DNA of 49,600 bases from Candidatus Nomurabacteria bacterium (GCA_028286485.1 JAQBRM010000007.1:1-49600), one strand, 5' to 3'; shown: positions 9,921 to 40,603, numbered from the stretch's first letter. Numbers and translations are program-made. Notes: a model not told the origin generated them from the letters alone.

Positions 9921-10052
9921 ATGAAAAACAACAAGCACCGGGTGAGTACACTCACACTCTGCCTTGACGTTATCACACTGTACCTTCTGCATTGGGGAGT
10001 TTTATCCTATCGGCATGAGCTGGTAAAAATTCCTCTGTATGCGTTTTATTAA
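9921..10052 (+). CDS. Hypothetical 43-aa hydrophobic mini-protein with its own promoter-like element and hairpin
   Basis: My own translation is MKNNKHRVSTLTLCLDVITLYLLHWGVLSYRHELVKIPLYAFY. Upstream, TTGACG (9873-9878) is followed by 18 nt and TTTAAT (9897-9902). A GC-rich hairpin lies 8 nt after the stop. Confidence 0.3.
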   Translation: MKNNKHRVSTLTLCLDVITLYLLHWGVLSYRHELVKIPLYAFY

Positions 10053-10059
10053 TGTATTT

Positions 10060-10087
10060 AAAAAACCGGGTCATCATGACCCGGTTT
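10060..10087. terminator. GC-rich hairpin (possible terminator)
   Basis: ACCGGGTCA (10065-10073) pairs with TGACCCGGT (10077-10085). An A-run lies on the left and only a short T-run on the right, so the better U-tail is on the minus strand. Confidence 0.45.
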
Positions 10088-10199
10088 CATTGCTTATTGA
10101 CTTTCTATAAAAATATGTAATAATATTAAAAGCTATGGTATTTAACACAACGTGAAATACCCCCTAGTTCTTCGACATAGAATATGTAATCATATACAG

Positions 10200-10985
10200 A
10201 TGAATGACCAAATAACACCCATTATCACCGATGTCCTTGAAACGATGGCCCGTTCCCCTGAAACAAAACAATTCGCCGTATTTGATTTCGACAATACCTG
10301 CATCGAGCATGACATTGCCGAAGCATTGCTGTCGTACTTGTGCGCCAATCAATTACTGAAAAATAATGCTTTGCTCGATATTCAATTCGAAAACAAAGAA
10401 GTGTACCATCAAAAGGTACTGGCTCATTATTATGAGCTGTTGGAAAAAGGCGAGATAGAACGTGCGTATCGATTTACCACGCAAATGCTCGCCGGCTTCC
10501 ATGAAAGGGATATCAAGCATTTGGTATCAAAAACCATTGTAGCCGAGGGTACGGAGATCGGCACCGCTACTTTATACGATGTCACGGTCGCGAAAGGGTT
10601 GCGGGTGCGTACGGATGTCATTGCGCTGCTGACTGCCTTACAGACCCGGCACATCAAGATATGGATCGTCAGCGCTTCGCCGGAAGTGGTGGTGAAGGCC
10701 GCCTTGAGTCACTACAATATCCCCGGAAATTGCATCGGTATGCGATTGCAAAACCTCGGCCACGTCTTTAGTGATGTTGTCGTTGAGCCGCTGAGTACCT
10801 TGGAAGGAAAAGTGACGTGTATTCAGCGTTACATTCATCCTGCCCAGCAACCCATCCTCGGCATCGGCGACAGCATGAATGACTTCCCTATGCTCGACTA
10901 TTCACACATAAAAGTGGTAGTGAATCGCCATAACAAACTGGCAGAGGAAGCCGCTCAAAACAACTGGCATTTGATTACCGCCTAA
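10200..10985 (+). CDS. HAD-superfamily hydrolase (phosphoserine-phosphatase-like subfamily)
   Basis: It carries DxDxT motif I (FDFDNTCIEHD), motif II (VSAS) and motif IV (GDSMNDFPML). I chose the ATG at 10200 (MNDQITP), which lies 9 nt downstream of TGTAAT. The track ORF starts at the GTG at 10152. Confidence 0.8.
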   Translation: MNDQITPIITDVLETMARSPETKQFAVFDFDNTCIEHDIAEALLSYLCANQLLKNNALLDIQFENKEVYHQKVLAHYYELLEKGEIERAYRFTTQMLAGFHERDIKHLVSKTIVAEGTEIGTATLYDVTVAKGLRVRTDVIALLTALQTRHIKIWIVSASPEVVVKAALSHYNIPGNCIGMRLQNLGHVFSDVVVEPLSTLEGKVTCIQRYIHPAQQPILGIGDSMNDFPMLDYSHIKVVVNRHNKLAEEAAQNNWHLITA

Positions 10986-21132: not shown

Positions 21133-21465
21133 TCAGTTGTGAGGGGCTTGTATGCCCGCTTGTTGCAATATTTGTTGTGCGGCTGTATCACTGCCGTTCT
21201 CGTGAAGCTTGTAGGCATGAACAAGCGCATCAAACTGGGTATGGGTAATCGCTTGGGCTCCCGGCTTTCCCTTTATGGCATTGGCAAAGGCATTGTAATC
21301 ATCACTTTCAATGGCTTTGCCAACAGTTTCGTGTAGCAACGGAGCACTCATTTTTTGCACCCAAGCAGGCTGTTGTTCGGCCGCAAACCCTGTAGAGGTA
21401 ATTGCACCGGCATACACCATGCCGAGGAGCCCGCAAAGAAGAATCTTTCGTGTTGCTACTGTCAT
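21133..21465 (-). CDS. Hypothetical small secreted protein (110 aa)
   Basis: It has a signal-peptide-like N-terminus (RKILLCGLLGMVYAGAITSTGFA) and a helical remainder. I recognise no family. Confidence 0.5.
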   Translation of the reverse strand: MTVATRKILLCGLLGMVYAGAITSTGFAAEQQPAWVQKMSAPLLHETVGKAIESDDYNAFANAIKGKPGAQAITHTQFDALVHAYKLHENGSDTAAQQILQQAGIQAPHN

Positions 21466-21498
21466 ATTACTTATGAATTACTAATAAATTACTTATAT
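21466..21498. repeat. Three tandem 11-bp direct repeats abutting the start codon of the 21133-21465 gene
   Basis: The units are ATTACTTATGA (21466-21476), ATTACTAATAA (21477-21487) and ATTACTTATAT (21488-21498). Confidence 0.6.
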
Positions 21499-21561
21499 GA
21501 GACGCTGCTTATGGACATCTCATGCCTAATCATACGTCAGCTAAAAAACTTTCTTTCACTT

Positions 21562-22353
21562 TTATTTCGAAATGTACTGCTGTAGGATCTCATCACAAGA
21601 AATTGCTTGTTGGGAGCCGGTAAAAGACTCGGCCACCGAAGGTTGAGCGGGAAAAAGCTCCCATGGCAGGACGCGACAGGCGAGAAAGGAGTGGCTGGCA
21701 GTAATAGCCCCCACAATACGAACAGCATTTCCTACCTGTAATAATACAGGGTCTGGAGCAGAGGAGAGCTTACTGATGTCCACAGTCCATACAAATCCAT
21801 TAAAAGCCCTTATTGTTAGCGTGGTGGGGCTTGTAGCGCTGACAACACCGGAAATACGGCCTTCCGTGGGGCTATTCCAGACGTATTCTTGTTGATTTTG
21901 AGTTGGGTGACGATAGTACGTTTCCACCCCATCATTCAGCGAATTGGCGGTCATGGCATAGAACAACATACCGATGATAATACTGCTCGCCACACTGATT
22001 AGCAGCAACTGTAGGGCCGTATGGCGATACCCCGTATTGGTTTTGCGCAGTAATGCGATAGTGATCAATGAGAAGAGTGCGAATGAAATAATCCATAATA
22101 ACGGGATAATAGCGATAAATACCAGCGGACCCCTATATTGGACATACTCTCTATTTTCCCAATGGGCATGCAAAATGCCGTACAATCCTCCAGCTATGGT
22201 ATAGGCTCCCAAGAGTGTGGTGATTACACCGGGAATCCACATCAATGTATTTCGCACCCTGAAATACCATTTCGGTCGCGGGGTGACTTTTTGCTGATCG
22301 ATAGCGGCAATGATTTTTTCGGTTGTATTAGATGTTGGTTCCATAGTCGGCAA
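21562..22353 (-). CDS. Polytopic membrane protein, putative anti-sigma factor
   Basis: 263 aa with several TM segments and a C-terminal soluble domain. It overlaps the 3' end of the ECF sigma gene by 26 nt. The function is inferred from position only. Confidence 0.45.
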   Translation of the reverse strand: MPTMEPTSNTTEKIIAAIDQQKVTPRPKWYFRVRNTLMWIPGVITTLLGAYTIAGGLYGILHAHWENREYVQYRGPLVFIAIIPLLWIISFALFSLITIALLRKTNTGYRHTALQLLLISVASSIIIGMLFYAMTANSLNDGVETYYRHPTQNQQEYVWNSPTEGRISGVVSATSPTTLTIRAFNGFVWTVDISKLSSAPDPVLLQVGNAVRIVGAITASHSFLACRVLPWELFPAQPSVAESFTGSQQAISCDEILQQYISK

Positions 22354-22906
22354 TCTTTTTTTGTAATTGTTTCTTGGCTCTATTGATACGCACCGCCACG
22401 GTACCGGCGGGGATTTTTAAAATATCAGCGATCTCTTCATATGATTTCTCCTCAAAAAAACGCAGGAGCAGGATTTCTTTGTATTTTTCATCAAGACCAT
22501 TGAGTGTGTTGATAATGTACTTTTTTTGTTCTTCATTACTGAAACGGGTGGTGAGGTCATCGTCGGACATGAGCTTGGTGACAATATCTTGGGCATCGTC
22601 ATCGAGCGACAGCGTGGCCCGCCGCTTCTCACGACGATACCAATCAATCATTTCGTTATGGGCGATGCGATAGATCCAAGAGGAAAATAATAGCGTCGTA
22701 TCATAGTCATTGAGGTTGCGATAGACCTTTATAAAAATATTTTGCAGCAAGTCCTCGATATCATCACTGGTGGCCAAGCTGCGCCGCCGGATGTATCGAG
22801 TCAATTTTGGCACGTATCGATCAACCAGCAATGCGAAATACTCAGAATCTTTCTTGCATTCAATGACAATCGCTTCATCGGAAAGCTGACCGGTATCTTG
22901 GAGCAT
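22328..22906 (-). CDS. ECF-type sigma-70 family RNA polymerase sigma factor
   Basis: 192 aa with region 2 (DIEDLLQNIFIKVYRNLNDYD...WIYRIAHNEMIDWYRR). Region 4 has an HTH (SYEEIADILKIPAGTVAVRINRAKKQL). Confidence 0.85.
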   Translation of the reverse strand: MLQDTGQLSDEAIVIECKKDSEYFALLVDRYVPKLTRYIRRRSLATSDDIEDLLQNIFIKVYRNLNDYDTTLLFSSWIYRIAHNEMIDWYRREKRRATLSLDDDAQDIVTKLMSDDDLTTRFSNEEQKKYIINTLNGLDEKYKEILLLRFFEEKSYEEIADILKIPAGTVAVRINRAKKQLQKKIADYGTNI

Positions 22907-22930
22907 TTTTATAGTATACGACAGAAATCG

Positions 22931-23536
22931 CTATTTACTTTCATGTGAATTGTCGTGCGTTTTCACATAGTTATCATAGGCGGTTTGATAATGCATGACA
23001 GTCTCGTCTTTTGGAAAATAATGCGATGTTGTTTTGCTCCCCGGAATGTTTTCCGGATCTGATAAAACATCCAATACATGCCCATCTGCCAGCGTAGCCT
23101 TTCCTTCCGCTACACGCTGAATAAGCCATTCCCTATAATTTTTAAAATAAACTTGAATATTTCTGACATCATCAAGTTCCAAGGCAGTGTTTGGGTTTTC
23201 GTCAATAAATTGCTGAAGCATTTCCTGCGCCTTATTCCCTCTGTCTAATTCCTCACTGCCTCTTAACTTTTTTGCTTCAAGCCAATCCAAGTAGTGGTCC
23301 CACGCATGTTTCTTTTCAATTCTTATTTCTATATTGTTTTCCTTATGATGTACCGTTTCTGTTTTATCTCCCGGTTTATCCGGTGTTTCAGTATGATGCT
23401 CGGTGGCCAGTGCTCCTGTTGAAGCGGCCGCCAGCCCTACCGCCATAGCCGCTTTTCTCATCCAACTTGGTGTTTCAATGCTTGATGTCTCTTTTTCCTC
23501 GTTATTTTGCGGTATTGGTGGGTTTTCCATGCTCAT
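22931..23536 (-). CDS. Hypothetical membrane-anchored/secreted protein (201 aa), His-rich N-proximal segment
   Basis: Intact ORF with a hydrophobic segment (AAMAVGLAAASTGALA). It is divergent from the response regulator gene. I recognise no family. Confidence 0.5.
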   Translation of the reverse strand: MSMENPPIPQNNEEKETSSIETPSWMRKAAMAVGLAAASTGALATEHHTETPDKPGDKTETVHHKENNIEIRIEKKHAWDHYLDWLEAKKLRGSEELDRGNKAQEMLQQFIDENPNTALELDDVRNIQVYFKNYREWLIQRVAEGKATLADGHVLDVLSDPENIPGSKTTSHYFPKDETVMHYQTAYDNYVKTHDNSHESK

Positions 23537-23646
23537 ATACCCCAGTATATACCACTTCTCAAGAAATTCTAAAGCATTTCAGGGGGTCTTCCCCACTTTC
23601 AGCTCGTTTTTTAAAAATCCTTATCTTATAATGAATATATAACCAT

Positions 23647-24321
23647 ATGCGTATTTTATTGATTGAAGATGACACTGAGACTCAGGAATTCTTACTGAGA
23701 CGATTGGAAGAGAAAGGGTTTGCTGTTGATATTGCCAAGACCGGCAACCGGGGCATATTTCTTGCCAAAACAAATGAGTATGATGTCATTCTTTTGGACT
23801 ATGGGTTGCCGGAAAAGAACGGCTTCATGGTCTGTGAGGAAATACGGAGCAGTGGCAAGCATACCCCCATTATCATGATATCGGTCAGTGATGCCGTGGA
23901 TTACAAAATCAAAGGCCTGACTGCCGGCGCCGATGACTATGTGGCCAAGCCGTTTTACTTTGAGGAATTATTCGCGCGCATCCAAGCCATGCTGCGTCGA
24001 CCGGCTGTCCTGGAAAGCAGCTTTTACAGCATCGATGATTTGAAGGTGGACATCGATCGCCAAACGGTCATGCGAGCCAATGCGCCTATTTATCTGACAC
24101 GCAAAGAGTTCTCATTGTTGGAATATTTATTGAAACATACCGGCACGGTGGTAACACGCGGCGAACTCATGGAGCATATTTGGGATATGACACTCGACCC
24201 CTTTTCCAATACCATTGAAACCCATGTGCTTAATCTTCGTCGCAAGATCGAGCAACCGTCAAAAATCAAACTAATTCATAGCATCCCGGGTCGCGGTTAC
24301 AAAATCGATCTTATACGATAA
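23647..24321 (+). CDS. OmpR/PhoB-family response regulator
   Basis: 224 aa. The receiver domain includes ILLIEDD and DVILLDYGLP, and a winged-helix output domain follows (LTRKEFSLLEYLLKH...IHSIPGRGYKI). Confidence 0.95.
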   Translation: MRILLIEDDTETQEFLLRRLEEKGFAVDIAKTGNRGIFLAKTNEYDVILLDYGLPEKNGFMVCEEIRSSGKHTPIIMISVSDAVDYKIKGLTAGADDYVAKPFYFEELFARIQAMLRRPAVLESSFYSIDDLKVDIDRQTVMRANAPIYLTRKEFSLLEYLLKHTGTVVTRGELMEHIWDMTLDPFSNTIETHVLNLRRKIEQPSKIKLIHSIPGRGYKIDLIR

Positions 24322-24375
24322 TTTAGAAAAACTTCGGCTAAATTTTATCACTGATTTTCTATACTACAGGGGCTA

Positions 24376-24404
24376 TTGGTCGAATAGCACATACTAGCTA
24401 TAAT
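24376..24404 (+). promoter_or_regulatory. Promoter-like element inside the RR-HK gap
   Basis: TTGGTC (24376-24381) is followed by 17 nt and TATAAT (24399-24404), which ends 17 nt upstream of the mini-ORF ATG. The spacer overlaps the hairpin GCTATT-GGTCG-AATAGC. Confidence 0.3.
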
Positions 24405-24421
24405 TACTCCATTATTCCCCT

Positions 24422-24535
24422 ATGAATAAATTAGTAGAAACCATGCTTGCCACCCCCTCCGCCCGCAATGCCGAAACCCTGAAAACGGTAGCCCTGTCCC
24501 AGAGCACGTTCACCCCTTGGGAAGGTACCGAATAA
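24422..24535 (+). CDS. Hypothetical 37-aa ORF with one C-proximal Trp (candidate signalling-peptide precursor)
   Basis: My own translation is MNKLVETMLATPSARNAETLKTVALSQSTFTPWEGTE. It occupies the otherwise unexplained 234-nt gap between the RR stop and the HK ATG. I saw no SD sequence and have no homology evidence. Confidence 0.3.
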   Translation: MNKLVETMLATPSARNAETLKTVALSQSTFTPWEGTE

Positions 24536-24555
24536 ATCCCATACGGACCCATACA

Positions 24556-26049
24556 ATGAATACTCGTCATCGATTAAGCCATTCCTTCCTTTCTTTCAAG
24601 GCTTTATTCGACCGCGGTATTCATTTTATGTATAGGCGGTGCATCGCTCCGCGCTCCGACACGGAAGATGAGAAACGCCATGAATTCATCCTCAACACCA
24701 TTTTGTGCGGCATTATCCCACTGCTCATTATTCTGGATACTTTTATTGCCCATGCGGCTCTGGAGCAACGCAATGCATATCAAGGAGTGCCGTTTCCCAT
24801 CTTTAGTTTTATTGTCATTCTGTTTGTCTATCTCCTTATTCTGTCTCGCAATACCTACCATAGGCTGGCCAGCTTTATCCTGATCGGCTTGTATTTCATC
24901 AGTACGACGTATGGCGCGATTCATTGGGGTATTGAATTACCGCTCGTGGCTATCAGCTATGTCGTCATTATCGTGATTTCCAGTATTTTAATTTCCACGC
25001 GGTTTGGCTTCTTTGTCACCTCTACGATTACCCTTACGATCATTGCCATCTGTGAACTGCAACTGCATCAGATAGTACATCCATCGCTGCAATGGAAATA
25101 TGCGTCCATAAGCATTCATGACCCTATTCAGCTCTCGGTGATATTTTTCCTCATCACCATTATCTCTTGGCTGTCCAATAGGGAAATGGAACGGTCATTG
25201 ATCCGAGCACGGGCATCCGAACACTTGCTGGTGGAAGAAAGAAATCTCTTGGAGATAAAAGTCGAGGAACGCACCAAGGAATTGAAGGAGGTGCAGCATG
25301 ATAAAGTGGCACAACTCTATCGCGTGGCGGAATTTGGCCGCATCTCAGCCGGCGTATTCCATGATTTGATGAACTCTCTGCAAGTAGTGGTATCAAATAT
25401 CAGCCAAGTGGAGGCGGGACCCGAACATCTGCCGGAAGTAAGGTTGCAGCTGGCCAAGACCGTGGCGGCCAGCAAGCGCATGGGCCGCTACATTGATACC
25501 GTGCGCAAACAAATCAGAAATGATGATACTCTTGCCGCAGAATTCTCAGTGGAAAAAGAAATTACCGACGCGATGGATATGTTGCAATTTCACGCTCGTA
25601 AGGCAAACGTGTCACTGCATTTCATCAAGAAACATTCCCTGATCTTGCATGGCAATCCCTTGAAATTTTACCAAGCCATTCTTAACCTGTTAGCCAATGC
25701 CATTGATGCCTGCGATGACAATGATAAACAGGGACAGATAGACATTATCCTCCAGTCTCACATACAAAATACCCATGCTGTTGTTATCATTCGGGATAAC
25801 GGGTGCGGCATACCCGTTGATGTCCTAGACCATATCTTTGATCAATTTTTCACCACCAAGGGCGCTCATAAAGGCATCGGCTTAGGCCTGTCCCAAACCA
25901 AGGAAATTATCGAGAAGGAATTCAAGGGAACCATTACGGTGACCAGCGAAGAATATCGCGGCACGACATTTACCATTACCCTGCCCATCATTCATGACAC
26001 CATTCAATTATCAGCCGGCGCTGCAATACCTGCTCTCACAACAACATGA
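24556..26049 (+). CDS. Sensor histidine kinase with about six N-terminal TM helices and no large extracytoplasmic domain
   Basis: The H-box is ISAGVFHDLMNSL, the N-box LLANAIDA, G1 DNGCGI and G2 GIGLGL. I chose the ATG at 24556. The track TTG at 24517 would overlap the mini-ORF. Confidence 0.9.
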   Translation: MNTRHRLSHSFLSFKALFDRGIHFMYRRCIAPRSDTEDEKRHEFILNTILCGIIPLLIILDTFIAHAALEQRNAYQGVPFPIFSFIVILFVYLLILSRNTYHRLASFILIGLYFISTTYGAIHWGIELPLVAISYVVIIVISSILISTRFGFFVTSTITLTIIAICELQLHQIVHPSLQWKYASISIHDPIQLSVIFFLITIISWLSNREMERSLIRARASEHLLVEERNLLEIKVEERTKELKEVQHDKVAQLYRVAEFGRISAGVFHDLMNSLQVVVSNISQVEAGPEHLPEVRLQLAKTVAASKRMGRYIDTVRKQIRNDDTLAAEFSVEKEITDAMDMLQFHARKANVSLHFIKKHSLILHGNPLKFYQAILNLLANAIDACDDNDKQGQIDIILQSHIQNTHAVVIIRDNGCGIPVDVLDHIFDQFFTTKGAHKGIGLGLSQTKEIIEKEFKGTITVTSEEYRGTTFTITLPIIHDTIQLSAGAAIPALTTT

Positions 26050-27868
26050 GGACGGCTCTTTTGATACTACCTTTTATACGGGACTCATCGTCAATGCATT
26101 AGAACAATTTGACGATACTATCAGTCTTCTTATCAAAAAACGCGCCGTACGGTTTTTACTGCAAGAAAAAAGCAGGCAGTGGTCGTTTAATTACGATCGT
26201 CGAGATGCCGTGGACAACCGATATCCTGATGATTTGGATGATACGTTCGTGGCACTGAAAGCCATTAGCATATGCCGGCCTGCCATGCTGACAGGCGAAA
26301 CATGGCAAGCTATCACTGCATTGCTTATTGCCAATGAGGAAAAACCGGCCGGTCCATATCAGACATGGATCATGCCATTGGCTGCGCGATCGGTTGAATG
26401 GCAGGACATCGATATTGTCGTTAACAGCAACATTGCCTCTTTTTTATCGCGTTTCAATATCGTCTTGCCGAGCATGCAGGAATATTTTGATGGTTTTATA
26501 GAGGCGGGGAATTTTTCTTCACGCTATTACCACCATGAATGCATCATTGTGTATTTCTTATCAAAAGCCTATCGGGGAACACATGCCGGCTTGTTACGCG
26601 AAACGTTGTTGAAAAAACGCAATGAAAATAATTATTGGGATTCAGCGTTTATTGCCGCTTTGTCTGTCAGTGCCTTGTTGGCATTAGGACAGGCGTCTGC
26701 CAGCCTTACTCCTGCTATTCAATACATTATGGATGGTGAGAAAGACGGACAGTGGACAGCTGAATCTTTTTTTATTGAATCGAAAAGTAATTCCGGGGTA
26801 ACCTATAGCGTTTCAGCTGCTCATACTACCGCCTGTTGTATCGAGGCATTACGCGCATATGAAGCCGCTGTTCGTCTTTCTACCACTGCTTCTATTTCCA
26901 ATGGTAATGACACTGAAGAAACACTTTTTATTGAAAAAGTCATTAGCAGCTGCAAGGAAATATTCTGTAACAGTGGTTCATTACTAACACAGCACATTCA
27001 TGGGGCACTTGATGTACTGATGAAGAAAGACCCGCATGCCGAGGTGATATTATTACCGTATCATTTTTCAAAAAACATGATGTGTGGTGGAGCGGTGTCG
27101 ACTGAACAACTGGCCGTAGCGACCACCCTTGGTTGGATTGGGTATACATTCCTTGATAAGACCATGGATGGCGAAGATACTATCGGCCGATTACCGTTGG
27201 CTGCTAAATGTATTCGCGAGTCCTATAATATTTTTCAATTATTCAATAAAGACCATGGTTCTGTTGTCCAAAGAATTCTCGATGGTATAGAAAGTGCCGT
27301 GTTGTCTGAGTATGTGACCTGTATATTACAAAAAGATGGTGATGATTTTCTTATGCCTTTTACCCTGCCTGACTATGGTGACTATCAGTGCTTGGCGGAA
27401 AAATCATTAGGGTTTGCTTTGGCGCCTATTATTCTTTGCCTGCAGGCGCAGGAATATGATCAGGCGGTACTGATGGAAAGGTTTTTCATTCATTATCTCA
27501 TTGCCCGACAGCTGAATGATGATGCACATGACTGGCTGGAGGATTTGGAACATGGTTTCATCAACAGTGTCAGTGTCGATATCATTAAGGACTGGCACAC
27601 ACAATATGTTTCAAGGAAATTAAACATGCGCCATGATAAGAAAATACTGCAAACGATTTTTTGGGAGAAACATATCGATACTGTCAGTACTACTATTGTT
27701 TTTCATTGCCAGAAGGCCAGCGATGTATTGAAAAAAATCACCGTACTGGCCGATAACACATTCTTAGAAAATTTACTCCATCCCTTGCAGCATTCCGCCA
27801 CGGAAGCATTGACGGAGCGGGACAAGGTCAGGCAATTCATATATACTTTGCATACTAACGATGAGTAA
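25994..27868 (+). CDS. Fusion protein: N-terminal terminal-cyclase/prenyltransferase-like alpha/alpha-toroid domain + C-terminal isoprenoid-synthase-like (two Asp-rich motifs) domain
   Basis: 624 aa. QW-like repeats are ALQYLLSQQHEDGSF, AVRFLLQEKSRQWSF and AIQYIMDGEKDGQW. YPDDLDDTF (DLDDT encoded within 26228-26245) resembles the DxDDTA motif of class II cyclases. The C-terminal half has DKTMDGED (27155-27178) and QLNDDAHDWLEDLEHG (motif core 27515-27544), 121 residues apart. Coding status is confident; the functional call is tentative. Confidence 0.6.
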   Translation: MTPFNYQPALQYLLSQQHEDGSFDTTFYTGLIVNALEQFDDTISLLIKKRAVRFLLQEKSRQWSFNYDRRDAVDNRYPDDLDDTFVALKAISICRPAMLTGETWQAITALLIANEEKPAGPYQTWIMPLAARSVEWQDIDIVVNSNIASFLSRFNIVLPSMQEYFDGFIEAGNFSSRYYHHECIIVYFLSKAYRGTHAGLLRETLLKKRNENNYWDSAFIAALSVSALLALGQASASLTPAIQYIMDGEKDGQWTAESFFIESKSNSGVTYSVSAAHTTACCIEALRAYEAAVRLSTTASISNGNDTEETLFIEKVISSCKEIFCNSGSLLTQHIHGALDVLMKKDPHAEVILLPYHFSKNMMCGGAVSTEQLAVATTLGWIGYTFLDKTMDGEDTIGRLPLAAKCIRESYNIFQLFNKDHGSVVQRILDGIESAVLSEYVTCILQKDGDDFLMPFTLPDYGDYQCLAEKSLGFALAPIILCLQAQEYDQAVLMERFFIHYLIARQLNDDAHDWLEDLEHGFINSVSVDIIKDWHTQYVSRKLNMRHDKKILQTIFWEKHIDTVSTTIVFHCQKASDVLKKITVLADNTFLENLLHPLQHSATEALTERDKVRQFIYTLHTNDE

Positions 27869-28730
27869 GATCAGCAGCCTGACCAAAGAAACGTTTTCGC
27901 ACTGGTATGACCATAGCGCCCCTCGTATGGGGGCGGCATTGTCTTTCTATGCCCTCTTTTCCATTGCACCGTTATTCATTTTAGTGATCGGTGTCATTAG
28001 GACGATTTTTGATAGGGCGACCGTGCACATGGCTATTGATCATACCTTGCGCGCTACGGTCGGAAGCAATTTGGCGGCATCGATTCAAGGTCTCATTAAT
28101 GGCGCCTATCATGCCCCGGCCGGCGTAATGACCACCATCATAAGCGGGGTAATTCTGATCGTGGCCGCCATCAGCGTCTTTGCGGAACTGAATACAGACC
28201 TCGATGAGTTGTGGAAATTGCCATCACCTCGGCCCGTAGTCGAAAATACTTCCACCAAACAAGCGATCGTGCATTTTCTCAAAGATCGTTTATTGGCATT
28301 ATTCCTTATTTTACTATTCAGCCTGCTCTCCCTTTTCAGCGTGGCTTTTACGGTATTTATTTCTTTTTTTCACACGGCAACTATCTTGCTTCAAAATACT
28401 TTTTTATTGCAAGGCATTAATATAGCACTCACCCTCATTATCACCACCATTCTTTTCGCGCTGATTTATCGCATCCTGCCAGACACCAAGCTTACTTGGG
28501 GTGACATATTTCGCGGAGCGATCGTCACCTCCCTGCTTTTCTTGTTCGGCAAATACCTGATCGGCTGGTACATTGATGCCTTTGGCGGCACCTCCGCCTT
28601 CGGAACGGCCGGTTCCGTTGTCGGCCTGCTCTTATGGATATACTACTCCGCGCAAGTCTTCTTTATCGGCGCCTCATTTACCTTTGTCTATTCCAAACGA
28701 TACGGATTTCTATCGAGGATGATGAACTAG
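27861..28730 (+). CDS. YihY/BrkB-family polytopic membrane protein
   Basis: 289 aa. The N-terminus (FSHWYDHSAPRMGAALSFYALFSIAPL) and the C-terminal GSVVGLLLWIYYSAQVFFIGA are typical of YihY. It overlaps the upstream gene by 8 nt. Confidence 0.85.
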   Translation: MSKISSLTKETFSHWYDHSAPRMGAALSFYALFSIAPLFILVIGVIRTIFDRATVHMAIDHTLRATVGSNLAASIQGLINGAYHAPAGVMTTIISGVILIVAAISVFAELNTDLDELWKLPSPRPVVENTSTKQAIVHFLKDRLLALFLILLFSLLSLFSVAFTVFISFFHTATILLQNTFLLQGINIALTLIITTILFALIYRILPDTKLTWGDIFRGAIVTSLLFLFGKYLIGWYIDAFGGTSAFGTAGSVVGLLLWIYYSAQVFFIGASFTFVYSKRYGFLSRMMN

Positions 28731-30484
28731 CTGCTTCTTTTGGCATGCATCAATAGATCCACGGCGTGTTCAAATGATCCGGCGGCCGTTAATGAACTTC
28801 CATTGACGAAGAAAATTTCATCGGCATTTTGAATAGTGTTCAAACGGTGTGCAATGATGACTTTAGTGGTGGTGGGAGGAAGCGTTTCAATTACTTTCTC
28901 CAGCAATGCTTCGGTGACCGTATCAATGTTTGCGGTGGCTTCATCCAGAATAATCAAATCAGGTTTGCGTAAAACGGCGCGCATAAAGGCAATGAGTTGG
29001 CGCTGCCCCAGACTGATGCTTTCTCCACTCTGGGTGACCGGTGTAGCCAAGCCGGATTCAAACCGTTGCACTAAATCATACAGGCCGTTTTCATGCAGGG
29101 CTTTTTCCAAGTGCTCGACAGGGGTGCCGTCATAGGCGGTATTGCCATAAAAAATATTTTCTCCCACCGTGCCGCTGAATAGAAACGGTTCCTGTAAAAT
29201 AAATCCGATTTTCTGTACGCGTTCGGCATCGGGTACGGTGCGCATATCTTTTCCTTCCAACCACACGGTGCCATGAGAAGGATCGTACAGACGAGCCATC
29301 AACGAAGCAGTGGTGGTTTTGCCGCCGCCGGTCGGACCGACCAATGCGTATGTTTTGCCTGGCAGTAATGCCACGGTCACATCGTGCAGGACAGTTTTCT
29401 GACTGTCGCTATACATAAACCCCACATCTTGAAATGAAATAGTGGTGGCTAGATCCGCTCTCGCCGGAGCAGCGGCCAGTAAGGGCATATCATTAGGCAT
29501 GGCGACAATGCCGGCAATACGGTCCCAGCTAGCCATAGCGGTTTGAAAAGTGGCCCACAGTGAAGCCATTTGTCGTAACGGGTCATACAAGCGGCTGCAG
29601 TACGTGATATAACTGATCAAAAAACCCAGCGTGAAATTACCAATCAAAATAAGATGTATGCCGTATATCAGTACCAGCAATTGCGCGGCATTGGCGGCAA
29701 ACCCGTATAGTGCCACGAAAATGTTGTTGGCGATGCCGGCCCGCACGGAGGTTAGGAAATTTTTGTGATTGGCGGCATTGAATTTTTCCCGGAAGTAATC
29801 ACGACGGTTGAATGCCACAATGACTTTGAAGTTGCCGAGGCTCTCTTGGATCTCAGCGCTCATACCCCCCACTTCCTGCAAACTTTTTGCATTCTGCGTT
29901 TTAACCCATGAGCCGATCAGTTGTGTCACCACCAACACGACCGCCAATGGGATCAAGGCAATAAGGCCAAGTCGCGGATTGATACTGAGGATAAATATAG
30001 CCGCGCCGATCATGACAAAGATATTGCCGATGAATTGCATCAAGGACTGGGAGAAAAATTGGTTCAAGTTGTCTGTATCGGTGTTGATGCGGGAAATAAG
30101 ATCACCGGCCTTGTTTTGGTTGAAGAAGGCAATAGGCAACTCCTGCAACTTTTCAAATATGGTGTTGCGCAAGGTAAAGAGCAAGCGCTGGCTGACGCCG
30201 CCCATGACTTTGGTTTGAACGTAGCTGGCAATGAACGCACCAATGTAGACCAATAACACCAATCCCGCGTACAAGGGCAAACCGGCATAGTGTTTCGTAA
30301 TAATGTACGTATTGATAGCGCGACCGATCAAGAGCGGGGTCAGCAGGGTCAGTCCGGCATTGGTAATAATGGCGGTAAAAGTAACGGCTAGTTGCACGGT
30401 GTCATTTTTCAGCAACGGCAAAAGCTTGCGCAGTGCCGCGAAGACTGATGATCTTTCTTGATGTGTATTCAATGAATAATTCAT
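28727..30484 (-). CDS. ABC exporter, fused TMD-NBD (half-transporter, partner B)
   Basis: 585 aa with six TM segments followed by an NBD. The NBD has Walker A (GPTGGGKTT), signature (LSLGQRQ) and Walker B (LILDEAT). Confidence 0.9.
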   Translation of the reverse strand: MNYSLNTHQERSSVFAALRKLLPLLKNDTVQLAVTFTAIITNAGLTLLTPLLIGRAINTYIITKHYAGLPLYAGLVLLVYIGAFIASYVQTKVMGGVSQRLLFTLRNTIFEKLQELPIAFFNQNKAGDLISRINTDTDNLNQFFSQSLMQFIGNIFVMIGAAIFILSINPRLGLIALIPLAVVLVVTQLIGSWVKTQNAKSLQEVGGMSAEIQESLGNFKVIVAFNRRDYFREKFNAANHKNFLTSVRAGIANNIFVALYGFAANAAQLLVLIYGIHLILIGNFTLGFLISYITYCSRLYDPLRQMASLWATFQTAMASWDRIAGIVAMPNDMPLLAAAPARADLATTISFQDVGFMYSDSQKTVLHDVTVALLPGKTYALVGPTGGGKTTTASLMARLYDPSHGTVWLEGKDMRTVPDAERVQKIGFILQEPFLFSGTVGENIFYGNTAYDGTPVEHLEKALHENGLYDLVQRFESGLATPVTQSGESISLGQRQLIAFMRAVLRKPDLIILDEATANIDTVTEALLEKVIETLPPTTTKVIIAHRLNTIQNADEIFFVNGSSLTAAGSFEHAVDLLMHAKRSS

Positions 30485-38201: not shown

Positions 38202-38660
38202 CTAATGCAGGAAATTCAACTTTGGATTTCTGAGATAGTTATTTTCCACTTTTTCCAATCGTGTATCGATGTTTTCCATCCTATATTCCACACGCTCTAG
38301 CCGATTCTCAATTTTATCAAATCGATCATCCATGCTGTCAAAACGCCGACCAACTGCTTCAAATTCTTTAGCAGTAATAATAGCCAGTTCTTCAACCTTT
38401 TCATCTATTTTTTGTAATAAGTTTGTTTCTACAGCTTCTATTTTAGCTAATAATTTTGTTTCAACGCCGTCTATTTTAGCAGTCAGCTCAGTTCTCACAC
38501 TATGAACTTCTGCTCCCAGTCCATCAATTTTAGTTAATAATATTGTTTCAACACCATCTATTTTTTGATCCAACTGTTTGTTTTGCGCTCCAAGCCCAAT
38601 GATCATTTCAGCCAGATCTTCATTCGTGACGTCTTTTTTGGTTGGTTTGGTACTACTCAT
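38202..38660 (-). CDS. Hypothetical coiled-coil protein with 11-residue repeats
   Basis: 152 aa with repeats KIDGVETILLT / KIDGVETKLLA / KIEAVETNLLQ / KIDEKVEELAI. I see no TM segment and recognise no family. Confidence 0.55.
   Translation of the reverse strand: MSSTKPTKKDVTNEDLAEMIIGLGAQNKQLDQKIDGVETILLTKIDGLGAEVHSVRTELTAKIDGVETKLLAKIEAVETNLLQKIDEKVEELAIITAKEFEAVGRRFDSMDDRFDKIENRLERVEYRMENIDTRLEKVENNYLRNPKLNFLH
38391..38564 (-). repeat. Intragenic tandem ~33-nt (11-aa) repeats
   Basis: The DNA repeats GTTTCAAC(G/A)CC(G/A)TCTATTTT-type units. They encode the KIDGVET-x-LL-x units at protein residues 33-90. Confidence 0.6.
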
Positions 38661-38776: not shown

Positions 38777-40603
38777 ATGAAAAAAGAACTCACTTCTAGT
38801 ATTTCCCTTCTACGGCGAATAGTTTCATTTGCGAAACCCTTTCGAAAACCTCTTATTACCATCTTTATATGTATTTGCGCTGTAACCATAATTGATGCTG
38901 CAAACAGCTTCTGGTTCAGTCAAATATTTAACTTAGTTCAAAAACACGGTACATCTCCACAACTTCTCCCCAAAGCATTAATGTTTATAGGGATAGCGGT
39001 AGTATTTGCTTTTGTTCGCATAGGGGTGGTAAGCAAGCAAACTAAAACAAAGATCAAACATATTGACCTGTCGGTTATGAATCATCTTAACCACGAGTCA
39101 ATTAAAAAATTCTTTTCGTTTTCAAACGGTCAACACATTAATGAGCATTCCGGGGTAAAACAAAATGTTGTAAACACCGGGACCAACTCCATTAAAAGCC
39201 AAATGGATCTATTATTTTTCAAGTTATTCCCTACTATCACTCAGTTTATAGTAGCGCTTGGAATTTTGCTGTATTGCAGCCTGTGGATCGGGACTATTTT
39301 TATTCTAATCGGAATAGTTTTTTGTTTGATGATGAATCGCATAAACAAAAGACTTGTTCCGGGAGTAAGGAAAATAAGAGATCGCGCTCAATTAAATTCC
39401 CGCCTTATCTCAGAGTTATACCGTTGTGTTACCTCGGTAAAACTTGAAAGTCAGGAAGAGCGATCCCTTGATGAGCTGACAGCGGTACAACAACAGCACC
39501 AGCTAATATCAATGGAAACATGGCTTCCTGCTTTGAAATCACTTACCAAGGTACGTTCCGTGGTGGTGGTGATACGATTTGCGGCCTTGTTTTTGGTTGT
39601 GTATCTTGTTTTTCAAAAACAATTCAGCATGGGGGCAATGTTTCTAGTGTTTACTTATTCAAATACATTTCTCAGTAATTTATGGGATTTCATGGATATG
39701 CATAAGCAGTTCCTGATCGATCGCATTAATATTGAAAGGTATTTTGAACTACTCGAGGTAGAGCCTGACATTGTCATTGTTGAAAACCCTATTAAACTGA
39801 AAAGATTGTACGGGAAGATTGAATTCAAAAATGTTTCTTTCTATTACCCACAACGAGTTAAGTCCTATGAAAATGTAGAGTACTTGCAGGAAGATGAGTT
39901 GCAAAATGATGCCATATTAAAATCGGTTTCATTTGTAATCAATGCCGGCGAAAAGGTTGGTATTGTAGGAGAATCGGGATCAGGTAAATCAACATTGGTA
40001 AATCTGATCAGGCGGTCGTTTGACGCCCAAGAAGGTCAAATTTTAATCGATGGCCACGATCTTCGCTTGCTTGATTTAGGGTTATTCTTAGAACATGTAG
40101 GCAATGTCGAGCAAGAGGTGGTTATTTTCGATCGTTCCATCAGGGATAATATTACGTTCGGGTTAAACAGCCGAACAAAAGCAATCACTCAGGAAAAATT
40201 AGAAAAAATCACTGAAATTGCCCGCGTGAATGCTTTCTTCCCTCGCCTTGAACATGGCTTTGATACCATGGTGGGAGAAAAGGGATTTAAACTATCCGGC
40301 GGTGAACGTCAGCGTGTTGGGATTGCGCGAGCTCTCGCAAAGGATCCCAGCCTCATTATTTTTGATGAGGCAACTTCTTCACTTGATGCAGTGAGCGAAC
40401 GTCTCGTTCAGGAAGCAATTGATGAAGCCTGTAAAGGTAAGACAGCGATTGTTATTGCCCATCGCCTTTCTACGGTAAAAAATTGTGACCGTATTCTGGT
40501 TTTCCGTTATGGTGTCCTTCTAGCCCAAGGAACACACGACGAACTGTTAACCGACTGCGAGTATTATGCTGAGCTGGTTCAGCATCAAATGATAACCGCT
40601 TGA
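38777..40603 (+). CDS. ABC exporter, fused TMD-NBD (paralogue 1)
   Basis: 608 aa with Walker A (GESGSGKST), signature (LSGGERQR) and Walker B (IIFDEAT). It shares the GQHINEHSGVKQ motif and an acidic NBD insert with the 41670-43469 protein. Confidence 0.9.
   Translation: MKKELTSSISLLRRIVSFAKPFRKPLITIFICICAVTIIDAANSFWFSQIFNLVQKHGTSPQLLPKALMFIGIAVVFAFVRIGVVSKQTKTKIKHIDLSVMNHLNHESIKKFFSFSNGQHINEHSGVKQNVVNTGTNSIKSQMDLLFFKLFPTITQFIVALGILLYCSLWIGTIFILIGIVFCLMMNRINKRLVPGVRKIRDRAQLNSRLISELYRCVTSVKLESQEERSLDELTAVQQQHQLISMETWLPALKSLTKVRSVVVVIRFAALFLVVYLVFQKQFSMGAMFLVFTYSNTFLSNLWDFMDMHKQFLIDRINIERYFELLEVEPDIVIVENPIKLKRLYGKIEFKNVSFYYPQRVKSYENVEYLQEDELQNDAILKSVSFVINAGEKVGIVGESGSGKSTLVNLIRRSFDAQEGQILIDGHDLRLLDLGLFLEHVGNVEQEVVIFDRSIRDNITFGLNSRTKAITQEKLEKITEIARVNAFFPRLEHGFDTMVGEKGFKLSGGERQRVGIARALAKDPSLIIFDEATSSLDAVSERLVQEAIDEACKGKTAIVIAHRLSTVKNCDRILVFRYGVLLAQGTHDELLTDCEYYAELVQHQMITA

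Follow-up and report, generated by a model that had tools for sequence, protein, structure and literature searches.

What could be made by a bacterial protein in which a class II terpene cyclase-like half is joined to a half resembling isoprenoid synthases, and what would such an enzyme do next to a sensor kinase? The question was raised by an open reading frame (ORF) at 25994..27868 (+ strand, ATG start, 624 aa) in a 49,600-nt stretch of DNA from Candidatus Nomurabacteria bacterium (GCA_028286485.1 JAQBRM010000007.1:1-49600), the whole of which is referred to here as the window. The target ORF encodes a two-domain protein and overlaps a kinase gene upstream and a BrkB-family gene downstream. 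A preliminary description of the locus had viewed it as a fusion of class II and class I enzymes of the kind known from plant and fungal diterpene synthases; the ORF and all motif strings cited there were present at the expected positions when the translation was made by program and the coordinates were located. Our analysis inclines, to a modest degree, towards another function. The protein would act as a ComQ/ChrPC-like maturase that prenylates the Trp residue of a small peptide encoded nearby and cyclizes the attached chain, the product being sensed by the kinase in a ComQXPA-like circuit.

Only profiles and structures were informative for the target, and single-sequence searches gave nothing useful. 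The protein alone matched no Pfam and no NCBIfam entry at E≤10, and phmmer against the PDB sequences returned only a spurious match to LegK7 (E 0.24). A word-indexed search retrieved 31 full-length homologues, and an exhaustive profile search yielded 3,610 cluster representatives (50% identity) with E≤1e-3, of which 1,529 reached E≤1e-30; the top 150 were all near full length (568–698 aa, mostly 620–670). The conservation counts given below refer to 168 full-length representatives that are mutually ≤50% identical, and the Pfam survey of the family covered 32 members. The accession PF28380 occurs in the precomputed annotations of two family members (P0017 and P0030); it may be a recent family covering part of the protein.

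The N-terminal domain (25994..26863, + strand, approximately residues 1–290) is predicted, by profile and structural model, to be a single-domain class II terpene cyclase, i.e., one alpha/alpha toroid of the beta type, nearest to the cyclase domain of AsDMS. The 32-member family profile matched this domain in the PDB (9mhs/9m7d) with E 1.9e-15, across residues 264–524 of chain 9mhs_B, and the 168-sequence profile scored the same fragment at 70 bits. The AlphaFold2 model of the target reached a pLDDT of 91.4 and a pTM of 0.77. When its N-terminal half was compared with the PDB by Foldseek, AsDMS was again the best match (E 5e-7), followed by SsDMS, the drimenyl diphosphate synthase of Streptomyces, and by the squalene-hopene cyclase SHC. 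Both approaches confirmed the class II-like single toroid without a gamma domain that had been proposed from the sequence. The Pfam check put forward at that time was answered only in part, since the target itself remained without a match, with SQHop_cyclase_C recognized in 13 of the 32 family members.

The PDDLDDT motif (26225-26245, + strand) aligned with PDDLDTT of AsDMS, D82 corresponding to the catalytic D333 and D80 to D331, so that the earlier comparison of YPDDLDDTF with the DxDD(T) general acid motif was correct. In AsDMS, D331, D333, and Y427 constitute the acid pair with its activating Tyr, and a set of Arg residues binds the diphosphate (PMC12365925). The acid machinery is kept in the family: D80 and D82 were each found in 167/168 sequences, Y179, the counterpart of Y427, in all 168, and the adjacent Y178 in 166. 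The surroundings of the motif are similarly constrained (P78 168/168, D83 162/168, T84 164/168), and the cation-pi aromatics F27, Y67, and Y77 are retained as judged by mapping onto AsDMS. The diphosphate clamp, in contrast, has been replaced: W136 (162/168) stands in the place of R378 and D138 (162/168) in the place of R380, and R425, R513, and Y373 of AsDMS align with positions that vary within the family. Substitution of R378 by Ala deprived AsDMS of 96% of its activity (PMC12365925). The head group of the substrate therefore appears not to be a diphosphate, and the domain looks like a competent protonation-dependent cyclase acting on a chain with another head group. On account of the same replacements, the assignment as a drimenyl diphosphate synthase was rejected. 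The drimenol synthase type with a HAD fusion was also dismissed; the target has no HAD domain and its partner is a domain with the fold of trans-isoprenyl diphosphate synthases (abbreviated trans-IDS).

This partner, a putative Trp prenyltransferase, occupies 26966..27865 (+ strand, approximately residues 325–624) and was recognized by Foldseek and by comparison of hidden Markov models (HMM-HMM). Model and profiles together indicate that the C-terminal half has the trans-IDS fold. Its Foldseek matches included the hexaprenyl synthase HexPPS (3aqb_B, E 1e-4), E. coli OPPS (3wjo_B, TMt 0.73), and the polyprenyl synthase 4jxy (TMt 0.72); overall, TMt values were 0.64–0.73 for trans-IDS enzymes and 0.65–0.70 for the Trp farnesyltransferase Ord1 (9v4g_B, 0.70). 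The terpenoid cyclase fold in the N-terminal half and the isoprenoid synthase fold in the C-terminal half, which the preliminary description wished to see checked by AlphaFold and Foldseek, were hence both recovered. In the HMM-HMM comparison, the 168-sequence alignment matched 15 genuine trans-IDS sequences with E 1.5e-4 (two controls, 0.52 and 0.23), and the match spanned the second Asp-rich motif plus the sequence downstream. When a 31-sequence alignment of the C-terminal part was compared by hhalign with IspA or IspB singly, the similarity was not significant (E 0.05–0.065), specificity being gained only with the larger pair of alignments, although the weak alignment (E 0.05) was co-linear, placing D388/D392 onto the first Asp-rich motif (FARM) of IspB and ARQLNDDAHDW onto its second one (SARM), AFQLIDDLLDY.

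Among the 50 Foldseek matches listed, there was neither a terpene cyclase alpha domain nor a squalene/phytoene synthase. The assignment to class I terpene cyclases was rejected on this ground and because Terpene_syn_C_2 matched only 1/32 members, with E 0.042. The likeness of the second motif to that of squalene/phytoene synthases, suggested earlier, did not hold either and this reading was abandoned; no SQS_PSY profile match was obtained in the 32 members and no such fold among the matches listed.

The FARM equivalent of the target is DKTMD within FLDKTMDGED (27155-27169, + strand). D388 and D392 were found in 168/168 sequences and position 389 is Asp in 126/168, so that the family consensus is the canonical DDxxD and the form in the window is the minority one. 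The second motif, QLNDDAHDWLED (27509-27544, + strand), contains Q506, D509, D510, H512, D513, W514, and D517. Q506, D509, D513, and D517 are invariant (168/168 each), D510 and H512 were counted in 166 and 167 sequences, respectively, and W514 is invariant or nearly so. Position 470 is Lys or Arg in 168/168 representatives and is followed by S471 in 165/168. The distance from D388 to D509 equals 121 residues, precisely as initially noted. Thus, both Asp-rich motifs of the preliminary description stood, although DKTMD does not represent the family form of the first; their near-total conservation, which it had proposed to look at among homologues, means that they did not arise by chance.

In StheQ, a ComQ homologue, Q212, N215, D216, and D219 are required for Trp prenylation (bioRxiv 10.64898/2026.08.29.745113), and the spacing Q506-x-x-D509-D510-x-x-D513 is the same. 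A conserved Gln upstream of SARM, proposed to recognize the indole, is described for Trp prenyltransferases (PMC13290415). Q506 lies at position -3 from D509 and is invariant, yet IspA and IspB also carry Gln there (FQxxDD), so that this residue does not discriminate between the two groups of enzymes.

What substrate the two domains could share was suggested by the surroundings of the gene. Window neighbors were searched for in 82 loci, and neighboring ORFs of 81 loci were clustered de novo. Two genes upstream of the target, the sequence encodes a precursor-like peptide of 37 aa, MNKLVETMLATPSARNAETLKTVALSQSTFTPWEGTE (24422-24535, + strand), which carries the conserved motif L-T-x-x-x-x-R at its N-terminus and, five residues from the C-terminus, an invariant Trp. 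Its gene sits upstream of the kinase gene and in most cases has the regulator gene on its other side. The peptide HMM detected a match (E<1e-3) in 71 of the 72 eligible loci, each of them a short way upstream of the kinase, and the best match elsewhere among 36,278 frames reached only E 0.25. The 69 distinct peptides are 34–40 aa long; Trp and Leu are present in all of them and Arg in 68/69. They share an N-terminus of approximately M-K-K-L-I-K-K-I-L-T-D-K-x-A-R-N, followed by a variable middle part. Pro precedes Trp in 57/69 peptides by direct count and in 60/69 in the aligned column, and between one and six residues follow Trp, which is never terminal. Close relatives differ at third codon positions 1185 times vs. 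687 and 630 at the other two, a signature of coding sequence. A Trp near the C-terminus combined with a leader-like N-terminus makes a pattern typical, at the level of sequence, of a precursor with its leader. The peptide was also considered as a Sec signal peptide, and this was rejected; a hydrophobic core was found only in 26/69 peptides and not in that of the window (value 0.55), which means that it is not a conserved property.

The gene between the peptide and the target encodes a membrane histidine kinase with approximately six hydrophobic segments followed by HATPase_c (24556..26049, + strand; the ORF opens with TTG at 24517 and the probable start is ATG at 24556). The Pfam scan recognized HATPase_c (E 8e-26) and HATPase_c_5 (PF14501, 26.3 bits vs. 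a cut-off of 22) and detected no HisKA-type domain. The hydrophobic segments fall within residues 55–221, and no extracytoplasmic domain is present. The H-box, FHDLMN, has the H-D-x-x-N form; the HATPase_c_5 GHKL family includes the AgrC/ComD-type sensors of peptide pheromones, with an H-box of this very form. In 78/82 loci, a kinase gene immediately precedes the target in the same orientation. The response regulator is of the OmpR type (23647..24321, + strand), with Response_reg and Trans_reg_C domains (Pfam E 4e-26 and 3e-23). A homologue was located less than 3 kb from the target gene in 66/82 loci, and de novo clustering gave a figure of 67/81. Mostly it lies upstream, but downstream and antisense positions also occur. 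De novo clustering revealed no other gene family broadly conserved near the target.

The kinase and target genes overlap by 56 nt (25994..26049, + strand), the kinase ORF stopping at 26049. The stop of the former and the start of the latter are tightly linked in 80 related loci, typically by an overlap of 4–80 nt and otherwise by short gaps; overlaps of 47–68 nt prevail in close relatives and of 4–23 nt in many distant loci. Q17, belonging to the first QW-like helix, is kept in 160/168 homologues, and because its codon (26042-26044) lies inside the overlap, the overlap has to be real, as was previously supposed. We interpret it as translational coupling of the kinase and the enzyme. Altogether, the peptide, the kinase, and the regulator provide the decisive evidence for the function proposed here, and this context suggests a pheromone.

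The same coupling may be read differently. The target might be a non-catalytic accessory or sensor protein that binds undecaprenyl phosphate, lipid II, or a similar isoprenoid lipid and informs the kinase of the envelope status. Its gene is obligately coupled to a kinase gene, and murG, ftsW, and mraY are located nearby in the window and in close relatives. This association with cell wall genes does not extend beyond approximately 10 close relatives. Furthermore, the acid triad and the Mg2+-binding Asp motifs are nearly invariant across 168 divergent sequences, as expected of catalysis, and the protein is soluble, with one short hydrophobic stretch (residues ~218–238); we regard such a role as very improbable. 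For the same reason of restricted occurrence, links with the cell wall (murG, ftsW, mraY) or with BrkB and ABC exporters were rejected as traits of the family, since BrkB, ABC exporters, and murG are found near the target only in these approximately 10 close relatives.

Another possibility is that the prenyl group goes to a different acceptor, e.g., free Trp or indole as in the case of Ord1, a lipid, or the kinase itself, and that the small ORF encodes a mini-protein modulating the kinase in the manner of MgrB. Ord1, of the same fold, farnesylates free Trp, the hydrophobic core seen in a part of the peptides would fit a membrane anchor, and the enzyme gene is coupled to the kinase gene and not to the peptide gene. 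On the other hand, what is invariant in the peptide is the near-C-terminal Trp and the leader-like N-terminus, the hydrophobic core not being conserved, and clusters of a precursor, a kinase, and a prenyltransferase have been known (PalPXQ). We find this explanation quite unlikely.

The function implied by the preliminary description was that of a free-terpenoid synthase. FPP (farnesyl diphosphate) or GGPP (geranylgeranyl diphosphate) would be converted into a bicyclic diphosphate at the class II site and released at the class I site, the two-component system would only regulate the process, and the small ORF would be unrelated or regulatory. Both sets of catalytic-type motifs are conserved, AsDMS, the nearest characterized relative of the N-terminal domain, uses free FPP, and a polyprenyl synthase gene is adjacent in 13 loci. 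A drimenyl-type diphosphate is, however, homoallylic, hard to ionize, and a poor class I substrate. Such a synthase is not the best reading because the C-terminal fold matches trans-IDS enzymes and Ord1, with no terpene cyclase alpha domain among the 50 matches listed, and because the clamping Arg residues of AsDMS have given way to Trp and Asp. Nor does it explain the peptide with the invariant Trp, which together with the two-component system is nearly always present, and a precedent for another chemistry exists in ChrPC and NctPC. Hence, the two-domain architecture noted at the outset remains, and the synthesis of free terpenoids in the plant or fungal style is now held to be unlikely.

The polyprenyl synthetases found beside the module bear on the source of the prenyl donor. 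A canonical polyprenyl synthetase (PF00348, E 8e-55 for the locus L012) adjoins the module in 13/81 loci. Its gene lies between the regulator and the peptide genes in four loci (L012, at 397-1419, L013, L042, and L070), immediately downstream of the target and in its orientation in six (L016, L018, L021, L035, L041, and L068), and downstream in convergent orientation in three (L039, L055, and L080). The four upstream copies have a Trp five residues before FARM (EDWLLIHDD), where the same-strand downstream copies have small residues; this difference suggests that module synthetases make products of different chain lengths. The adjacent synthetase points to a prenyl diphosphate as the donor, and its presence lowers the likelihood of the fused domain itself being an elongating synthase.

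A fusion of elongation and cyclization is nevertheless conceivable, as the fungal copalyl diphosphate synthase PvCPS reportedly performs prenyl chain elongation and class II cyclization in one enzyme. In such a case, the C-terminal domain would make FPP or GGPP from isopentenyl and dimethylallyl diphosphates and the N-terminal domain would cyclize it. Chain-elongating trans-IDS enzymes are the best Foldseek matches of the C-terminal half, and FARM is present together with a full DDxxD in the second motif. Against this, the cyclase has no diphosphate clamp, a separate canonical synthase has been recruited in 13 loci, and H512 and the nearly or fully invariant W514 are no features of IspA or IspB. 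The elongation-specific RRG that follows FARM in IspB aligned with residues not conserved in the family, and no GGKRxR-like motif was noticed in the family consensus, with no motif search aimed at it. We consider this combination very improbable. The assignment of the domain to the chain-elongating PF00348 was rejected as well, the profile having matched, apart from the negative result for the target, only 1/32 members, with E 0.017.

How, then, would a peptide maturase of this kind work? What was observed comprises the two folds, the conservation of their catalytic-type residues, the loss of the diphosphate clamp in the cyclase domain, and the near-obligate association of the peptide, kinase, and enzyme genes. 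The chemistry of each step, the nature of the donor and its chain length, the Trp atom modified, the processing, the export, and the signaling role are inferred. The C-terminal domain would bind an allylic prenyl diphosphate, probably C15–C20, via Mg2+ at FARM, ionize it, and move the prenyl chain to the invariant Trp of the peptide, in the way known for ComQ, PalQ, and the ChrPC P domain. Subsequently, D82, activated by Y179, would protonate the terminal double bond of the chain now carried by the peptide, and the chain would cyclize to a drimane-like or larger polycyclic unit, as in the C domains of ChrPC and NctPC. Prenylation is placed before cyclization because the diphosphate clamp is missing, because ChrPC and NctPC set the precedent, and because a drimenyl-type diphosphate would resist ionization. 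The conserved N-terminal leader would probably be removed from the lipophilic product, which the kinase with its six transmembrane (TM) segments may sense and report through the OmpR-type regulator, thus closing a pheromone circuit similar to ComQXPA.

Several observations weigh against this scheme. The sequence similarity of the C-terminal half to any prenyltransferase is marginal, PDB sequence searches gave nothing relevant, and in the Foldseek ranking Ord1 comes slightly below ordinary synthases of the chain-elongating kind. A complete DDxxD is found in the second motif vs. the degenerate NDxxD of ComQ and StheQ, so that a second diphosphate substrate is possible. In 26/69 peptides, the central part is hydrophobic, and some of these could be small membrane proteins. 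The regulator belongs to the OmpR type, as opposed to NarL-type ComA. De novo clustering of the 81 loci disclosed no protease and no dedicated exporter conserved with the module, and the 49.6-kb window contains no prenyl-diphosphate synthase.

A regulatory input into the proposed circuit may be located in the intergenic region between the regulator and the peptide (24322..24421, + strand), which is conserved among close relatives, to which the comparison was limited (alignment of 10 related loci; equivalents of the region occur in L001–L010 and L081). It holds two TTTAT-A-like direct boxes approximately 22 nt apart and a TATACT -10-like box (24360-24365). Further downstream, a 7-bp inverted repeat surrounds an invariant TCGA (24370-24390), with compensatory changes in L081 and L005. 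In this putative hairpin, 92.9% of cells were paired vs. 29–41% in slid controls, and three pairs were changed on both sides. The region is a candidate regulator-controlled promoter with a 5' hairpin or operator. It could include an OmpR-type binding site, implying autoregulation of a transcript encoding the peptide, the kinase, and the enzyme. A scan of 23400-28900 for promoters and terminators detected sites no more numerous than in shuffled sequence.

How widely is the module spread? When species-representative genomes were scanned, 308 loci were confirmed. The labels of the 80 listed loci are nearly all of Patescibacteria, i.e., the candidate phyla radiation (CPR), and include Nomurabacteria, Paceibacterota, Saccharibacteria, Microgenomates, Doudnabacteria, CPR2, and others. 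Labels outside CPR (Vitreimonas, Gammaproteobacteria, Methylomirabilota, and Sulfotelmatobacter) were not taken at face value; the GC content of these loci (36–52%) falls within the range of all loci (26–53%), and the record titles of these metagenome-assembled genomes are probably wrong. The loci so labeled are L018, L019, L028, L038, L060, L068, and L082; they display CPR-like module organization, and two are situated on contigs of 1.3–1.4 Mb.

The broadest conclusion that may be drawn is that CPR/Patescibacteria widely carry a pheromone circuit built of a Trp peptide with a cyclized terpenoid, a cyclase–prenyltransferase fusion of independent origin, a 6-TM kinase, and OmpR feedback onto the peptide promoter, which would make it the first class of RiPPs (peptides made by the ribosome and modified after translation) and the first quorum-sensing-like system in these organisms. 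We put this forward tentatively, with somewhat less than even confidence. We know of no cell–cell signaling system in CPR/Patescibacteria, which are ultra-small and mostly episymbiotic, and no report of such a peptide-prenylation/cyclization system in Patescibacteria was found in the literature. If the proposal is true, a family without a Pfam or NCBIfam assignment, comprising the 1,529 representatives mentioned above, gains a function, and terpene-cyclized peptide lipidation, reported for the first time in 2024 and for a handful of pathways, becomes a widespread CPR trait. Organisms with minimal genomes would gain a candidate signaling system that is testable with one enzyme, a 37-aa peptide, and commercial prenyl diphosphates. 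The fusion would also represent a compact biocatalyst for placing polycyclic terpenoids on peptides and the second case, after the HAD fusion of AsDMS, of a beta-only class II cyclase completed by its fusion partner.

The window as a whole is an ordinary chromosomal region with genes for tRNA synthetases, dnaB, recR, murG, ftsW, mraY, and many transporters. The BrkB-family gene (27861-28730) overlaps the target by 8 nt; in the relatives L001 and L002, a called ORF of 67 aa (9923-10126 and 10225-10428, respectively) lies between the two genes, which is absent in the window. Upstream of the module, a divergent block on the - strand (21133-23536) encodes an ECF-type (extracytoplasmic function) sigma-70 factor (22328-22906), whose 3' end overlaps the gene of a 263-aa multi-pass membrane protein, a possible anti-sigma factor (21562-22353), as well as proteins of 201 aa and 110 aa without Pfam matches. 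This block is common to L001 and not to the wider family. The segment 38001-40000 has a low GC content (0.365–0.376), with a GC skew of -0.244 at 38–39 kb, and contains a 152-aa ORF without a Pfam match (38202-38660) as well as the beginning of an ABC exporter gene (38777-40603).

The proposed system may finally be set against those already described. In plant and fungal bifunctional diterpene synthases, too, one chain holds both a class II DxDD site and a metal site rich in Asp. They are built of three domains (alpha, beta, gamma), the alpha domain being a terpene cyclase that bears DDxxD and NSE/DTE motifs, whereas the target has no gamma domain and its alpha domain resembles prenyl synthases and transferases. 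AsDMS is the best sequence and structure match of the N-terminal domain, similarly beta-only, with PDDLD(T/D)T, the Asp pair with Tyr, and the cation-pi aromatics. The two proteins differ in the partner, an N-terminal HAD phosphatase in AsDMS and the C-terminal trans-IDS-like domain in the target, in the FPP diphosphate clamp (R378, R380, R425, and R513), which the target family has not conserved, and in an invariant GGPYxTW insertion of the family that is absent from AsDMS.

In the organization of genes, the module resembles two systems of Trp prenylation. The PalP-PalX-PalQ cluster of Paenibacillus alvei encodes a kinase, a precursor, and a prenyltransferase together, and PalQ prenylates a C-terminal Trp (PMC10853753). 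PalQ requires Trp to be terminal, any extension abolishing its activity, which is never the case in the module peptides; moreover, PalX has an NHLP leader and PalQ lacks a cyclase domain. ComQ of Bacillus, likewise trans-IDS-like, prenylates an internal Trp of ComX, and its cluster also contains genes for a response regulator and for a multi-pass histidine kinase of the membrane. A modifying enzyme, a Trp peptide, a membrane kinase, and a regulator thus recur in the CPR module, an analogy of organization only. The gene order is Q-X-P-A in one and R-X-K-enzyme in the other. ComP is a HisKA_3 kinase and ComA of Bacillus a NarL-type regulator, whereas the module kinase has only HATPase_c and HATPase_c_5 and the regulator Trans_reg_C, so the two pairs are not orthologous. 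ComQ has no cyclase domain, and its pseudo-SARM is NDxxD vs. DDxHD in the family; the likeness of the enzymes lies in fold and motif spacing.

The closest parallel is offered by ChrPC and, at a greater distance, NctPC (Hubrich et al. 2024, Chem 10:3224), fused prenyltransferase–cyclases that mature RiPPs, as summarized in PMC13290415. According to this summary, the prenyltransferase domain attaches C10–C20 donors to the peptide Trp and the fused monodomain class II cyclase cyclizes the chain; in ChrPC, the P domain is of the trans-IDS-like kind and acts on an internal Trp of a ribosomal peptide, and all characterized trans-IDS-like peptide prenyltransferases target Trp (PMC13290415). The target shares with them the two folds on one polypeptide, a putative precursor gene nearby, and an internal Trp, followed here by one to six residues. 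The cyclase is N-terminal in the target, and ChrPC was compared by its published description. The target cyclase is nearest to the beta domain of the AsDMS type (E 1.9e-15), whereas MstE, the cited relative of the NctPC C domain, scored only E ~0.9. The known precursors of the ChrPC/NctPC type are reportedly proteusin, Nif11, or lasso-type peptides; the putative precursor of the target family is 34–40 aa long, lies within a two-component module, and is hosted by CPR/Patescibacteria. The enzyme logic of a fused prenyltransferase–cyclase has been known since 2024, and four traits appear to be described here for the first time: the AsDMS-like lineage of the cyclase, a precursor of such small size, a kinase as the near-obligate partner, in most cases with a regulator close by, and the spread across CPR.

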